A model generated the notes under the pieces. It saw only the letters and a list, made by a program, of their open reading frames with translations. It searched no databases and was not told the DNA's origin. A program made the position numbers and the translations under genes. DNA of 13,632 bases from a virus. This document shows, in pieces, positions 113 to 4,396 of this stretch (its first letter is position 1; every line of letters starts with the position of its first letter). The stretch lies in UHGV virus genome UHGV-1808101; one strand, written 5' to 3'.

Positions 113-256
113 TTAGTGAATGCTTTTGCTTGATCTCAGTTTCAGTATTAATATCCATTTTTTATAAGCGTCGACGGCTTCACGAAACATCTTTTCATCA
201 CCAATAAAAGTGGCGATAGTGAATTTAGTCTGGATAGCCATAAGTGTTTTATCCAT
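113..256 (-). CDS. kil: Kil (host cell-division inhibitor), 47 aa
   Basis: Translation [47 protein letters not shown] is near-identical to recalled lambda Kil; start overlaps the cIII stop (AATGGATAA); same frame as the 3' part of the 113..382 track ORF. Confidence 0.75.
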
Positions 257-389
257 TTTTGGGAACTCCTGGCTGATTAAGTATGTCGATAAGGCGTTTC
301 CATCCGTCACGTAATTTACGGGTGATTCGTTCAAGTAAAGATTCGGAAGGGCAGCCAGCAACAGGCCACCCTGCAATGGCATATTGCAT
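249..389 (-). CDS. cIII: CIII (FtsH/HflB inhibitor that stabilises CII), 46 aa
   Basis: Not in the ORF track (<60 aa). Minus-strand ATG at 389 preceded by AGGAG; translation [46 protein letters not shown] matches recalled lambda CIII over its N-terminal 46 residues. Confidence 0.8.
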   Translation of the reverse strand: MQYAIAGWPVAGCPSESLLERITRKLRDGWKRLIDILNQPGVPKNG

Positions 390-454
390 GGTGTGCTCCT
401 TATTTATTTACACATAACGAAAACGCCTCTAGTGAAGCGTTATTGGTATGCATA

Positions 455-479
455 TAAAAAAGCCCTCACATTGGAGGGC
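455..479 (-). terminator. Rho-independent terminator (tL-like) upstream of cIII in the leftward operon
   Basis: On the minus strand: GCCCTCCAATGTGAGGGC hairpin (6-bp GC-rich stem) followed by TTTTTTAT. Confidence 0.5.
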
Positions 480-541
480 AAAGAAGATTTCCAATAATCA
501 GAACAAGTCGGCTCCTGTTTAGTTACGAGCGACATTGCTCC

Positions 542-569
542 GTGTATTCACTCGTTGGAATGAATACAC
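542..569. repeat. Perfect 9-bp inverted repeat GTGTATTCA-N10-TGAATACAC in the cIII-upstream intergenic region
   Basis: Read directly from the sequence; no adjacent U-run, so not an obvious intrinsic terminator. Confidence 0.4.
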
Positions 570-613
570 AGTGCAGTGTTTATTCTGTTGTTTATGCCAA
601 AAATAAAGGCCGA

Positions 614-1237
614 TTATGCGGCCTCGGAAGGAAGTCCAATCATCTTATTCAAATCTTCTACCCGTAAAGCAGGAAGTGCTGCACTTGCTTTATCTGCTTC
701 TTTTGGTAGCAACTCTTTGCTTTCAGGCCAAACTTCAATAAGTCGCTTAACTGTTGTGACTGAGTTCAAAGCAGCCCATACGTTTGATTCTATATCCTTT
801 TTCCTGGCTTCAAGTTTTTGTTGCAATGCGCAGATTTCATCAAACCTTTTTGTTATTTTGTGTTCTGCGTCAAACATGCATTTATCTTTGTCGGGGGTAG
901 GGAGCAATATATCTTCACCGTTGCCGTCTTTTCCGTATGAATGCCAGCCAACCCTTCTTCCAGATACAGTCAGATAAATCGAACATGAACTGACATCGCA
1001 TGAGTAAAATGAACATCCCAGCTTTTGAAGTTCCTCACTTGCAGCCATTAACTTTGATGCCAGCTGGTCCACTTCTTCGGTTTTCTTTTTCCCGCCAAAC
1101 GCAATAACTCTGGCGTCAAGTGCAAGCTGGTTCTTTAACTTTGTTACTTCTTCAAGTTCAGTGAACACCCCGGACTTAATTAAAGCGTTACGAGCGATTT
1201 CCTCTTTCATTCTCGTAGTTAAGCGGATTGATGACAT
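614..1237 (-). CDS. Hypothetical early-left (pL operon) protein, 207 aa, function unknown
   Basis: Long minus-strand ORF; chosen start MSSIRLTT at 1237 has a GAGAGGAA Shine-Dalgarno-like sequence upstream; occupies the ea10/ral/sieB accessory slot between N and cIII. No motif recognised. Confidence 0.6.
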   Translation of the reverse strand: MSSIRLTTRMKEEIARNALIKSGVFTELEEVTKLKNQLALDARVIAFGGKKKTEEVDQLASKLMAASEELQKLGCSFYSCDVSSCSIYLTVSGRRVGWHSYGKDGNGEDILLPTPDKDKCMFDAEHKITKRFDEICALQQKLEARKKDIESNVWAALNSVTTVKRLIEVWPESKELLPKEADKASAALPALRVEDLNKMIGLPSEAA

Positions 1238-1298
1238 ATTAATTCCTCTCAAATAAGTGGTTTGCTGCCTAATCTCATTTTCTGGCGACCAACACAAG

Positions 1299-1682
1299 TC
1301 ACCTCGCCGTCAGTTGTTTTGATTTCCGGTAGCCTGCCGCGTAAATGGCTACGTTTGGAAGACATACACCAGTTTCTGGTTGCTTATGTCCAAACTCATT
1401 CGCGTACACAATGGCTGCTCGCTCCAGATTGCGTCTGTATTCTTTCTGTTGCCAGATCACGTCCTGTGCCATGAACTTAATTGGCTTAGCGTCTTCTATG
1501 CGCTCAGGCGTTTCGTGAGTACCTTTAGCCTGAATCTGCGCTCTGCTTAGAGTAGGGCGGTGTAATACTTCTGAACTTATTGCTTCTTCGCGGGCCAGTA
1601 CGCAGTTAGCTAATGCCTTTGCCTTTAAACGCTCACGACGACGAGAACGTGAATTGCCTTTGAACTGAGTTCTGCGTGTCAT
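1299..1682 (-). CDS. N: Antitermination protein N, P22 gp24-like type (127 aa)
   Basis: AGGAGG Shine-Dalgarno 6 nt upstream; N-terminal arginine-rich motif GNSRSRRRERLKAKA; C-terminus VAIYAAGYRKSKQLTAR resembles recalled P22 gene 24 protein (…ALYAAGHRKSKQITAR); first gene downstream of pL/nutL. Confidence 0.7.
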   Translation of the reverse strand: MTRRTQFKGNSRSRRRERLKAKALANCVLAREEAISSEVLHRPTLSRAQIQAKGTHETPERIEDAKPIKFMAQDVIWQQKEYRRNLERAAIVYANEFGHKQPETGVCLPNVAIYAAGYRKSKQLTAR

Positions 1683-1847
1683 ATAGACCTCCTGATGAAC
1701 TTTGGTGGTGTGGTAGGTGGGAGACCCATTTCGACCTGTTTCGGCCTACTTCAATTCGGCAATAGTCCCGCAGGCCTCGCCGCTTTACGTGCGACATATT
1801 CCCGTCCATGAACCCTTCACCACACCCCAAAGTTCACTTTGGTTATT

Positions 1848-1862
1848 GCGCTTTGTCAGCGC
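1848..1862 (-). promoter_or_regulatory. nutL boxB RNA hairpin (GCGCUGACAAAGCGC on the leftward transcript)
   Basis: Minus-strand reading GCGCTGACAAAGCGC; 4-5 bp GC stem with a GACAA-containing loop, the P22-type boxB as recalled; located between pL and N. Confidence 0.6.
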
Positions 1863-1930
1863 CGTAGATTCATATTCGAATCGTTGTATATTCACCGCCC
1901 TGGTGAGTGGTGCATCCTGCTGATGGCTAA

Positions 1931-1959
1931 ATAGTACGATGTGTACTTTATTGAGTCAA
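1931..1959 (-). promoter_or_regulatory. pL promoter with overlapping operator oL1 (-35 TTGACT, 17-bp spacer, -10 TACTAT on the minus strand)
   Basis: Minus strand reads TTGACT-caataaagtacacatcg-TACTAT; the spacer contains the palindrome AGTACACATCGTACT (plus 1933..1947), which recurs at pR. Confidence 0.55.
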
Positions 1960-2142
1960 TACAAAATGTTCTAAATATGATTAGTTTTTTATAACGTTTT
2001 GTATTTTATGGGGTTATATTTTGCAGGGTTGAGTGGCTTGGGAGGTGATCGAGAGATCTGAATTGCGATGTTTAGTGAGTTGTATCTATTTATTTTTCAA
2101 TAAATACAATGAGTTATGTTTTTTAGGTGGGGGATCGCGAGG

Positions 2143-2177: not shown

Positions 2178-2798
2178 TTAATGCTGGGGAGTGATTTTTT
2201 TGTTGTCTGTTGGCTGGGTATTTTGTGGCGGCGCTTGCAAAGTGGAAGGCTGTTGCAAAGGTGCGTGGTCTGACTTTAAAGCTGATACCAGCCCGGGAAT
2301 CGCAACTATTACAGCGATAATGACACTAAAAATGGCTAATCGTATAGAAATACCCGACTGAACACCACTAATTGCGGCATTAACCCCTGTTATTTGTCCT
2401 TGAATTCCTTCGAATCTCCCATTAATTGCTTTTATATCGCCAGCAGCGCTATCCATCTTTCCATCGATCTTGGACGATAGAGAGCTTATGGCTGCATTAA
2501 GTGATGCAAATTGGACATTAACGCTTTCACGAGATAGAGCCATGTCAGCCCTAATGGAGGAAGCAATAGACTCCATCTCTGCTTTATTAGCAGCTAAGCG
2601 AGCATCAAGTTCCTCTCTGCTGATCGTTCCCACTTCTTCCTCCGTTTGTGGCGGTTTTATGTAATTATTTTGCACCTTGGTGGGAGAATTATCAAATTCA
2701 GCCTCAAAATCAGAACCGCCAACAACCTTCAACCTCCGGCTTTCAGATATGTTGGTGTCTTGCTTTCCATGATTATTTAAATTACTGTCGTCACTCAT
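2178..2798 (-). CDS. Hypothetical membrane-anchored coiled-coil protein, 206 aa (third gene after cI)
   Basis: ORF with ATG overlapping the upstream stop (ATGA coupling at 2795..2798); hydrophilic N-terminus, Ala/Ser-rich heptad-like central region, one hydrophobic helix LAIFSVIIAVIVAIPGLVSAL, and a Pro/Gln-rich C-terminal tail. Confidence 0.65.
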   Translation of the reverse strand: MSDDSNLNNHGKQDTNISESRRLKVVGGSDFEAEFDNSPTKVQNNYIKPPQTEEEVGTISREELDARLAANKAEMESIASSIRADMALSRESVNVQFASLNAAISSLSSKIDGKMDSAAGDIKAINGRFEGIQGQITGVNAAISGVQSGISIRLAIFSVIIAVIVAIPGLVSALKSDHAPLQQPSTLQAPPQNTQPTDNKKITPQH

Positions 2799-3229
2799 AA
2801 TAGCTCTACGGTGAAAAATGATTCATTTTTATGAAGTTCATTTTTAGGGTCTTCATTATCTTGCAATATCCCTATAACACTATACAGCCCTTTAGCTGGG
2901 ACCCTAATTTCTTTCAATGTTACTATTACCTGTCCGCCAACCCCTGTTTCAAAATGGCTATCTTTCGTATCGATGAAAAGTGAAACTGATTCCGAAGAGC
3001 CGTCAGGGAATTGAATTTCCTCACCTTTTTTTATAATTAGGTGCGCGGGGATTACCATAATACCCAAATTATATCTTGAATTTGGTTTCAACCCGATCAT
3101 ACCAACCCTGAAATCAATTGATAGCCGCGCAGGAAATTCATTGCATGTAAAATTAAGCGTCGGTTGGTTGGGTTCTTCGCTGCTATCAAATGGGGTTATA
3201 AAAGATATTCTTTCTAAATTAAGTGCCAT
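2795..3229 (-). CDS. Hypothetical protein, 144 aa (second gene after cI)
   Basis: Start moved to MALNLERISF (ATG at 3229) because AGGAGA lies 5 nt upstream; the longer track ORF (start 3283) lacks a comparable ribosome-binding site. No motif recognised. Confidence 0.6.
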   Translation of the reverse strand: MALNLERISFITPFDSSEEPNQPTLNFTCNEFPARLSIDFRVGMIGLKPNSRYNLGIMVIPAHLIIKKGEEIQFPDGSSESVSLFIDTKDSHFETGVGGQVIVTLKEIRVPAKGLYSVIGILQDNEDPKNELHKNESFFTVELL

Positions 3230-3299
3230 AAATTCTCCTGCATCGCTGTATGCTCTACGAGCATCTCTGCGACCATCCATCATCCAAACGTCTCTTCAC

Positions 3300-3641
3300 T
3301 CATCCGAAGAAGCAGCAATCCGGGTCAGCACGCACAAGCTCAAGCGCATCAGTCAGCGAAAGTTCAGTACTGTACTGATGCCATTTCATATCCTTCCGCA
3401 TCCAATAGATTTTCCATCTATCCAGAGAACGTATGTACTTGATTCTTGCTGATGGCAGGATGTTTGTTTCACCTGGGTTGCCCTGCCACACGGGGCGCTG
3501 TTCGCCGATATCTATCGTTTGGTCATTGATGCTATAAACAATATCCAGTTCATTGCGGATATGTTCAGGCGGCCTTATGCTTTCAATGAATTGGTGAACT
3601 TCTTTTTTGACCGCTTGATATTCAAGGTCAGTGAACGCCAT
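3300..3641 (-). CDS. Hypothetical protein, 113 aa (first gene after cI, rexA-like position)
   Basis: ATG 10 nt after the cI stop with a GAGGAGGA Shine-Dalgarno overlapping the cI stop codon; no motif recognised. Confidence 0.65.
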   Translation of the reverse strand: MAFTDLEYQAVKKEVHQFIESIRPPEHIRNELDIVYSINDQTIDIGEQRPVWQGNPGETNILPSARIKYIRSLDRWKIYWMRKDMKWHQYSTELSLTDALELVRADPDCCFFG

Positions 3642-3650
3642 CTATCCTCC

Positions 3651-4310
3651 TCACCCAAACGTCTCTTCAGGCCACTGGCTGGCGATAACTTTCCCAACAA
3701 CGGAACAACTCTCATTGCATGGGATCATTGGGTACTGTGGGTTTAGTGGCTGTAGAAACACCTGACCACTATCCCTGATCAGTTTCTTGAAGGTAAACTC
3801 ATCACCACCAAGTCTGGCTATGCAGAAATCACCTGGCTCAACAGCCTGCTCAGGGTCAACAAGAATTAACATCCCGTCAGGAAAACTGGGTTTGGAACCT
3901 GTTGGTGCGGTCATTGAGTTACCTTCAACCTCAAGCCAAAATGCAGAATCACTGGCTTTTTTGGTTGTGCTTACCCATCTCTCCGCATCACCTTTGGTAA
4001 AGGTTCTAAGCTCAGACGAGAACATCCCGGCCTGAACATGAGAAAAAACAGGGTACTCATATTGTTTTTTAACGGGGGCTGATGAGCATTCGCCAACAGG
4101 TGAAAATGTACCGTCGTGGTTGAATGAGACGTTATTAATACCAAGGTACTTAAACACCACACCAATCTCGTCAAGAGATGGATGACGAGATCCGCGCAAC
4201 CAGTGACCAATTCCACCCTGCGTCATACCAAGCTCTTCAGCTAACTTCTCTTGAGTTATGCTGAGTTCTTTCATTCTGGATCTAGCCAGTTCATACCATT
4301 TCATTTTCAT
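3651..4310 (-). CDS. cI: CI prophage repressor (helix-turn-helix N-terminal domain plus LexA/S24-type autocleavage C-terminal domain)
   Basis: C-terminal ~135 residues ([15 protein letters not shown]…[12 protein letters not shown]) match recalled lambda CI, including the Ala-Gly cleavage region; N-terminal domain ([37 protein letters not shown]…) is a different helix-turn-helix. Start set at 4310 (GAGGGT Shine-Dalgarno; leaves ~110 bp for oR) rather than the track start at 4373. Confidence 0.9.
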
Positions 4311-4367
4311 ACCCTCATTATTACGCTCCGTACTAAAACCATCCATGCACAAGATGTATTTTTTCGA

Positions 4368-4396
4368 TTGCATTCCAAAAGTACATATCGTATTAT
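4368..4396 (+). promoter_or_regulatory. pR promoter with overlapping operator oR1 (-35 TTGCAT, 17-bp spacer, -10 TATTAT)
   Basis: Plus strand TTGCAT-tccaaaagtacatatcg-TATTAT; spacer and -10 carry AAGTACATATCGTATT, matching the pL operator consensus AAGTACA-N-ATCGTAYT; cro ATG 27 nt downstream. Confidence 0.55.

Follow-up and report, generated by a model that had tools for sequence, protein, structure and literature searches.

The gene between N and cIII of an Escherichia coli lambdoid prophage is a full-length member of the Nmad5 family

The gene at 614..1237 on the minus strand of UHGV virus genome UHGV-1808101 is, with hardly any room for doubt, a full-length member of the Nmad5 family (PF18757), forming an exchangeable cassette within the early-left (pL) operon of a lambdoid prophage that lies beside mlrA/yehV in E. 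coli. The window, by which we mean the whole stretch of 13,632 nucleotides that was analysed, covers the early-left, immunity, replication and nin region of this prophage. As to what the protein does, our tentative first choice, held with less than even confidence, is an autonomous, non-enzymatic, very early accessory protein that would bind a host or DNA-metabolism partner and serve either host takeover or the early protection of phage DNA.

Results

The protein matches Nmad5 over its full length

The preliminary description of this gene had treated its product as an unrecognised protein without any recognisable motif, a view that does not survive comparison with curated families. The 207 codons, which are followed by a stop codon at 614..616, matched the Pfam model PF18757 (Nmad5, 'Nucleotide modification associated domain 5') with 231.9 bits against a cut-off of 27 (E 1.1e-68), protein residues 4-203 aligning with model positions 1-206 of 206. 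The protein also matched PHROG 1965 (E 3e-81), a family of unknown function, and gave no match to the NCBIfam profiles. An identical (100%) RefSeq protein, WP_000095078.1, is named 'Nmad5 family putative nucleotide modification protein', and its homologues bear the same NCBI name. The gene is, therefore, an already known and annotated family member. Because the family is curated and the RefSeq label is correct, the gene should not be carried forward as unrecognised, and its value rests in the family and not in the window copy. The preliminary description had also reckoned with homology to a characterised housekeeping or structural family; the homology found is to an uncharacterised one.

In the family-size search (1.84 billion representatives, clusters at 50% identity), 914 clusters matched the family at E <=1e-3. 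Among the matches listed in two homology searches (150 and 120 proteins), almost all were 190 to 220 aa long and no domain fusions hinting at function were found; the 120 listed matches with Pfam annotation carried PF18757 only. With its 207 aa, the window protein shows the same stand-alone, single-domain build of about 200 aa. As far as the Pfam title and citing papers tell, the name Nmad5 derives from the gene neighbourhood in phages with hypermodified thymidine. Such a neighbourhood of base-modification enzymes is lacking around the window gene, and family membership stands nonetheless, since this is a contextual feature and not a sequence criterion.

Conservation is concentrated in a C-terminal module and gives no sign of an enzyme

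The family is marked by a C-terminal signature, TTxK[KR]L..WPE...LP...LN..IGLP, which in the window protein reads TTVKRLIEVWPESKELLP...LPAL.VEDLNKMI (637..753, minus strand, codons 162-200) and includes R165. R43, GG48-49, G93, T162, L166, WPE170-172, P178, L196-N197 and G201 are all present; in alignments of 25, 52 and 80 sequences, these columns either do not vary or are conserved to at least 90%. When 52 to 80 diverse members were compared, the positions that were invariant or nearly so were R5, L6, I14, A18, R43, G48, G49, G93, T162, K164, L166, W170, P171, E172, L176, P178, L196, N197 and G201. No catalytic-type constellation of D, H, C, K or S was conserved across the same members.

An AlphaFold model of the window protein, for which the 80-sequence alignment served as input, reached a pLDDT of 87.8 and a pTM of 0.74. 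It predicts three helices at the N-terminus, with a beta-hairpin region at residues 86-121, a long helix at 127-158 and, around the WPE motif, three short helices; the C-terminal tail (183-207) was modelled with low confidence although it is among the most conserved sequence. We found no PDB relative of this model. Foldseek against BFVD returned 13 matches at E <=1e-3, with a best TM-score of 0.74, and all the named matches were Nmad5-domain proteins or the eiAU homologue, which had already been found by sequence, except for PhiJL001 Gp23. When the PDB was searched by sequence, both the protein itself and a profile of 52 sequences yielded only coiled-coil noise (best 3hnw, E 0.03). For a nucleotide-modifying enzyme of any class, we thus found neither conserved catalytic-type residues nor a related enzyme fold, the missing PDB match and the missing catalytic-type residues both being negative evidence only.

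The window protein has a pI of 6.76, with 32 K+R against 32 D+E, and the family has a median pI of 6.8 (range 5.3 to 9.8). Since both protein and family are neutral, they correspond neither to a DNA mimic nor to an obviously basic DNA binder; a mimic of the Ocr/ArdA type was rejected on charge, as the protein is neutral rather than strongly acidic. Homology to lambda Gam or Sipho_Gp157, considered as candidate host-nuclease inhibitors encoded beside recombinases, was likewise rejected, with hhalign probabilities of 0.1 to 0.2% each in a comparison of single sequences only, which is a weak test. The Pfam and PHROG scans gave only Nmad5 and sub-threshold coiled-coil matches, with no homology to Ral, SieB or Ea10, and no PADLOC-DB defence family matched the protein at E <=0.1. 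Finally, the C-terminal 'EAA' was considered as a degron and rejected as a family feature, because its codons form the 5' arm of a terminator hairpin and distant members end differently.

The gene follows N in the pL operon and precedes its first intrinsic terminators

The longest form of the open reading frame begins at a TTG (1297) and encodes 227 aa; the form that begins at the ATG at 1237 encodes 207 aa (MSSIRLT...). We took the ATG as the start because it agrees with the beginning of both the family alignment and the Pfam model. The good ribosome-binding site noticed earlier is indeed present: it reads GAGAGGAA (1243..1250, minus strand), and its GAGG core (1248..1245) lies 7 nt before the ATG. 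The gene immediately upstream encodes the antiterminator N (1299..1682, minus strand; PF25694 E 2.3e-15, PHROG 271), whose stop codon is separated from the Nmad5 ATG by 61 nt, and no hairpin with a T-run was found in the interval 1238..1298. RefSeq annotates the N gene of E. coli SCU-104 as a short pseudogene fragment ('regulator, incomplete'; L170 14186..14254). This label is probably an annotation artefact, since the window has an intact 127-aa open reading frame that matches the N_peptide family and PHROG 271.

On the other side lie the genes for cIII (249..389, minus strand; PF02061 E 9e-31) and Kil (113..382, minus strand), and gam, bet and exo are further early-left neighbours. No other minus-strand open reading frame of at least 40 aa was found within 390..613, so the Nmad5 gene is the sole slot gene in the window. 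The ORF list thus bears out the claim that nothing else is encoded between N and cIII, a claim that applies to the window and not to all relatives.

A tL-like terminator had been proposed to follow the gene, and the minus strand has three hairpins there, at 625..606, 479..462 and 441..422. The first (GAGGCCG-CATAAT-CGGCCTT plus a T-run; 596..625, stem 625..606) is terminator-like and overlaps the Nmad5 stop codon. It is kept in most of 80 close loci, and in eight of them it occurs as a variant, GGTCG...CGTCC, that would give a U-U stem mismatch. The second, a tL-like intrinsic terminator (GCCCTC-CAATGT-GAGGGC-TTTTTT; 452..479, stem 479..462), aligns with a stretch of HK106 that bears an annotated rho-independent terminator, and it lies within 260 nt downstream of the Nmad5 gene in 59 of the 80 close loci. 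The third (422..441), which has a T-rich tail and lies just upstream of the cIII leader, also occurs in HK106 and PhiR12_1 in conserved form. The gene that comes next begins with the cIII thermoregulator RNA (Lambda_thermo, Rfam RF01804; 344..402, minus strand; 88.5 bits against a gathering score of 50).

A pL-like promoter (TTGACT-17-TACTAT; 1931..1959, minus strand), recognised by consensus match at the position where pL is annotated in HK106, would drive both N and the Nmad5 gene, and a consensus scan found no promoter-like site of the gene's own. Because there is no terminator-like site between N and the gene, and the first such sites come after it, we infer that the gene is transcribed together with N before antitermination and is an immediate-early product; a Rho-dependent stop in between is possible.

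The gene is an exchangeable cassette under purifying selection

Among close relatives, the N alleles that accompany the Nmad5 gene are 39 to 100% identical, and in some cases no N could be detected. The gene lies 65 to 1108 nt from N and 109 to 2740 nt from cIII, and it is not the sole occupant of the slot in all of them. The recombination genes downstream also differ among lambdoid phages, being Red in the window, Erf/Abc2 in PhiR12_1 and RecT in Kapi1. HK106 carries a different, 83-aa gene in the same slot; its sequence diverges from that of the window in the 5' arm of the stop-codon hairpin and is identical from the 3' arm onward (L002 ~3195..3215). This junction indicates that the Nmad5 gene can be exchanged as a cassette, whose downstream limit is a conserved block made up of the terminator and the cIII leader. 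The earlier view of an accessory gene in the early-left slot is borne out: the gene is real, looks well expressed and sits in a slot whose content varies among relatives.

The 207-codon frame was intact in 79 of the 80 close homologue loci (IMG/VR), and the one exception (L076) had a TCA to TAA change at codon 3. For 57 distinct alleles we obtained a mean dN of 0.025 and a mean dS of 0.110, a dN/dS of about 0.23 that indicates purifying selection; together with the intact frames, this value argues that the gene is not a chance open reading frame. As dN/dS was 0.14 to 0.24 in each of the four quarters of the gene, diversifying selection was rejected. Allele variation was concentrated in residues 51-150, and the C-terminal module was nearly fixed.

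The gene was present in 211 of 5426 complete E. coli genomes. In E. coli SCU-104 it is 100% identical, and the prophage that carries it adjoins mlrA/yehV. Among Stx2a-converting phages, one lineage (48 records) has a copy without Nmad5 homology before about codon 34, and from this truncation we conclude that the gene is dispensable in that lineage. In Stx2_716 (L181 1125..1451, 1501..2025), the sequence that replaces the 5' part encodes an IS-like open reading frame, which we take to be orfA of an IS3-family transposase, and this suggests that the gene was interrupted by an IS element. Separately, tblastn gave a second matching place in the Stx2a-phage records. Disruption in most homologues, which the preliminary description had raised as an objection to its own proposal, was therefore not seen; the gene is intact in most of them, with the exception of the Stx2a-phage lineage. 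A literature search on the PhiR12 and mEp235 phages found nothing relevant.

Other features of the window

Three minus-strand genes at 2178..3641, between the cI-type repressor gene (3651..4373, minus strand) and pL, occupy the position of lambda rexAB. They encode a DUF3024 protein (3300..3641) that matches the PADLOC candidate defence family PDC-S43 (E 7e-42), a 162-aa protein of PHROG 5893 (2795..3283) and a 206-aa protein of PHROG 5820 with a C-terminal hydrophobic helix (2178..2798), and together they look like a prophage-expressed defence or exclusion cassette.

The nin region, on the plus strand, contains a Lar-family restriction-alleviation gene (7450..7686) and a phage N6-adenine methyltransferase gene (8059..8613), so that the prophage already has restriction-evasion functions, in an operon other than that of Nmad5. 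Further along the plus strand, Rfam models identified isrK (8829..8905), a c4-a1b1 target (8816..8868) and a C4 antisense RNA (8931..9014). Two antirepressor-type genes (9067..9771 and 9840..10568) lie directly downstream of these RNAs, an arrangement that corresponds to P1/P7-style antisense control of an antirepressor, here in a lambdoid nin region. Just after the Q gene there is a weak tRNA-like Rfam match (11799..11868, plus strand; 32.6 bits against a gathering score of 29); ARAGORN called no tRNA over the whole window, and the match may represent a decayed tRNA. Two full-length copies of the STnc100 sRNA (12700..12905 and 13183..13392, plus strand; Rfam, 141 and 166 bits) are located downstream of the Q antiterminator gene and a TerB-family gene (11970..12473).

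Gene contexts across phages are diverse

A scan of viral contigs with the window protein as lead returned only near-identical E. coli prophages; with a distant member as lead, diverse contexts appeared. We sampled these as 31 non-redundant viral loci, clustered at 80% identity. The loci were retrieved by the pattern WPE[ASV]x[ED]L[LI]P, so that Yuavirus-type sequences are under-represented, and their 150 neighbouring genes, up to three genes away, were compared with Pfam. The recurrent neighbours were DUF2800 (8), PD-(D/E)xK nucleases (7), an Enc34-type ssDNA-binding protein (7) and family-A DNA polymerase (6), followed by S24/HTH repressors (3) and N (2). Helicases, VapE, AAA_24, a DnaG zinc ribbon, YqaJ, RusA, SNF2, DUF669 and DinI appeared as single cases. 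No base-modifying family recurred within three genes in these 31 diverse loci.

Individual phages agree with this: outside the Yuavirus clusters, the gene is found in replication or recombination modules or on its own, and not beside base-modifying enzymes. In the N4-like phage Pollock, the Nmad5 gene lies between a thymidylate-synthase-like gene and a gp42-like exonuclease gene, and the order in a metagenomic phage (L171) is ThyX, Nmad5, Rv2179c-like exonuclease, PolA. Another metagenomic phage has it between a helicase gene and a DUF3799 nuclease gene, and in eiAU it follows the helicase-primase gene. Solitary copies occur between terminase and portal genes in ZRG1 and, on the opposite strand, among the tail genes of Vibrio phage VchM-138. 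Dhillonvirus, of which Nmad5 is a core gene (146 records), likewise has it on the opposite strand, flanked by head genes. The setting within a thymidine-hypermodification cluster was found in the Yuavirus phages M6, YuA and SN1; in M6 and YuA the gene lies between those for aGPT-Pplase1/5-hmdU kinase and dUMP hydroxymethylase, near the DNA polymerase gene. When the M6 pathway was studied in vitro, gp51 to gp55 were used, without the Nmad5 protein gp56; for the first transfer step, gp54 and gp51 sufficed (PMC8989533).

Published genetics of a Dhillonvirus homologue

A full-text search by family name identified a single study with experiments on Nmad5 (PMC11846954). In the phages SM_A8 and SM_S22, spontaneous escape from Tmn was mapped to the Nmad5 substitutions K216E and K296E, respectively; reversion of the mutation made the phage sensitive to Tmn again and its introduction made a phage resistant (PMC11846954). 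Deletion of nmad5 gave no resistance to Tmn and showed the gene to be dispensable, wild-type Nmad5 gives no protection from Tmn, for which the genus uses a separate anti-Tmn gene, and attempts to clone the nmad5 gene failed, apparently owing to its toxicity (PMC11846954). Since the phage stayed sensitive to Tmn after the deletion, Nmad5 is not simply the trigger.

In our alignment, K216 of SM_A8 and K296 of SM_S22 both fall on R165 of the window protein, the conserved basic residue in TTxK[KR]L[IL]xxWPE. The difference in numbering arises from the SM_S22 annotation (L168 2006..3010), which is 80 codons longer than that of the SM_A8 orthologue (L169 2048..2812). The shorter, SM_A8-type start is probably correct for SM_S22 as well, as the additional codons run into the scaffold gene and correspond to nothing in the family alignment.

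According to a 2026 preprint, which makes no mention of Nmad5, the direct trigger of one Tmn variant is T2 RIIB, described there as an early, replisome-associated protein (PMC13001434).

Discussion

A very early binding protein is the favoured reading

In the mechanism that we tentatively favour, the Nmad5 protein would be made very early, being transcribed with N ahead of the first intrinsic terminators, and would act as a binder and not as an enzyme. Binding would take place through the C-terminal module, in which TTxK[KR]L..WPE..LP is invariant and precedes a flexible tail, LPA...LN..IGLP. The partner of the protein would be a conserved host or DNA-metabolism component, and its role would be either to take over the cell or to guard phage DNA replication and recombination as they begin. 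Early expression, action by binding and a role directed at the host are all steps that we infer.

The idea of the preliminary description, that the protein serves host takeover or anti-defence, is plausible for the lambdoid Nmad5. We count in its favour that conservation and fold are not enzyme-like, that the family occurs autonomously and in a moron-like manner in unrelated phages, that the gene precedes the first intrinsic terminators of the pL operon, and, by analogy, the Dhillonvirus genetics (PMC11846954). The lack of a PADLOC match and the neutral charge count against it. Further points weigh against the favoured reading: with Gam, Kil and cIII already encoded by the prophage, host takeover shows no obvious gap for the protein to fill, and the replication and recombination neighbourhood could reflect the mere clustering of early genes. 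The experimental data, moreover, concern a homologue of 23% identity and are ambiguous, since nmad5 deletion left the phage sensitive to Tmn, and toxicity is read from the cloning failure.

Alternative roles

A dedicated anti-defence protein, a narrower form of the idea in the preliminary description, would instead attach to one particular immune protein or nuclease of the host and block it; a KAP/YobI-type membrane NTPase such as Tmn is an example. The escape genetics are what makes this attractive, since a charge reversal at the conserved basic residue escapes Tmn and deletion does not, which looks like a gained inhibitory specificity (PMC11846954). Dispensability, moron-like occurrence, very early placement and the concentration of allele variation in residues 51-150, with a nearly fixed C-terminal module, are also in keeping with it. 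However, a dN/dS of 0.14 to 0.24 throughout carries no arms-race signature, a family that is neutral (median pI 6.8) is unlike an acidic DNA mimic, and hhalign shows no relation to lambda Gam or Sipho_Gp157. In addition, the wild-type Dhillonvirus protein gives no protection from Tmn and the genus has a separate gene for this purpose (PMC11846954). On balance we regard a dedicated anti-defence role as doubtful.

The recurrent neighbours raise another prospect, namely an accessory subunit of the phage replication or recombination machinery that would bridge or load a nuclease, an ssDNA-binding protein or a polymerase. The gene is found repeatedly between those for the Enc34-type ssDNA-binding protein and family-A DNA polymerase, adjoins DUF2800, DUF3799 and Rv2179c-like or N4 gp42-like exonuclease genes, abuts or overlaps a neighbour's frame by a few bases at some loci, and in lambdoid phages lies upstream of exo/bet/gam, erf/abc2 or recT; Tmn, moreover, is reported to sense the replisome-associated T2 RIIB (preprint PMC13001434). 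On the other hand, the partner genes are not constant, being Red, Erf, RecT or PolA modules in different phages and missing from the vicinity in others, and the solitary, oppositely oriented copies in structural modules speak against a dedicated phage-encoded partner. Given also that the gene is dispensable in Dhillonvirus (PMC11846954) and truncated in the Stx2a-phage lineage, we consider a replication subunit unlikely.

Taken literally, the family name would suggest a true nucleotide-modification factor, acting as a non-catalytic specificity or targeting subunit of DNA-modifying enzymes and, in the lambdoid phage, as a Ral-like modulator of methyltransferases of the host or the phage. In the corresponding slot, lambda carries ral, which modulates methylation, and the window has its own N6-adenine methyltransferase (8059..8613) and Lar-family protein (7450..7686). 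The copies in M6, YuA and SN1 lie within a thymidine-hypermodification cluster, and those of Pollock and L171 have thymidylate-synthase-like neighbours. Against this, no modification enzyme recurs within three genes in the 31 diverse loci; the methyltransferase of the window lies 6.8 kb away, in the pR operon; the Pfam scan gave no Ral family; and gp54 and gp51 were enough for the first transfer in M6, in work that did without gp56 (PMC8989533). The explanation fits Yuavirus only, and a modification role appears distinctly improbable.

A prophage-benefit gene, such as a SieB-like superinfection exclusion or defence function expressed from the lysogen, can be practically set aside: the gene sits where lambda has sieB, and prophage accessory slots often hold defence genes, but there is no PADLOC match, the pL operon to which the gene belongs is repressed, no promoter-like site serves the gene alone, and it is a core gene of the strictly lytic Dhillonvirus (146 records), with further copies in N4-like and Yuavirus lytic phages.

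Implications

Returning to the very early binding protein, we can extend it to a more far-reaching proposal, which we put forward as speculation and regard as unlikely: that Nmad5 proteins are misnamed and are widespread autonomous, non-enzymatic early effectors, whose TTxK[KR]L..WPE surface and flexible tail would make contact with a conserved component of the host as phage DNA replication begins, and that membrane NTPase immunity of the Tmn type would monitor this contact, or a single charge reversal could turn the contact against such immunity. If this were true, the lambdoid Nmad5 protein, co-transcribed with N before the first terminator, would be a second immediate-early function in a tractable K-12 system. 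The family is widespread in the sampled phages, mostly those of Proteobacteria, and most of the contexts examined do not fit its name. The lambdoid phages mEp235, HK542 and PhiR12, which carry the gene and have E. coli or K-12 MG1655 as listed host, would be convenient for finding the function of Nmad5 and the basis of Tmn escape.

Comparison with known systems

T2/T4 RIIB, reported to trigger Tmn (preprint PMC13001434), offers only a functional analogy to Nmad5, as an early, non-essential phage protein that is tied to the replication stage and whose mutations escape Tmn. The two differ in that no homology was found between them, and in that RIIB escapes include nonsense mutations, whereas nmad5 deletion gives no escape.

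The Dhillonvirus protein (SM_S22 CDS6, SM_A8 CDS7) belongs to the same family as the window protein, has the same C-terminal signature and is likewise accessory and dispensable. It is, however, only about 23% identical, measures about 254 aa and has a large insertion in the beta region, and its gene lies on the opposite strand between the head genes of a lytic siphovirus, in contrast to the pL operon position of the window gene. The Yuavirus proteins M6 gp56 and YuA gp15 have their C-terminal half in common with the window protein (residues 121-207, 32 to 45% identity) and a more divergent and shorter N-terminal half. Their genes are early ones close to a DNA polymerase gene, as the window gene is early, but are surrounded by genes for aGPT-Pplase, 5-hmdU kinase, radical-SAM and PLP enzymes, none of which is near the lambdoid gene.

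In lambda, the interval between N and cIII holds Ral, SieB and Ea10, which are non-essential accessory cargo. These share with the window gene the position in the pL operon and the accessory kind, but have no sequence relationship to its protein, which is about three times the size of Ral. Compared with the setting that gave Nmad5 its name, the window gene is without base-modifying enzymes around it, whereas its protein agrees with the family in size, signature residues and predicted fold, with no structural difference.
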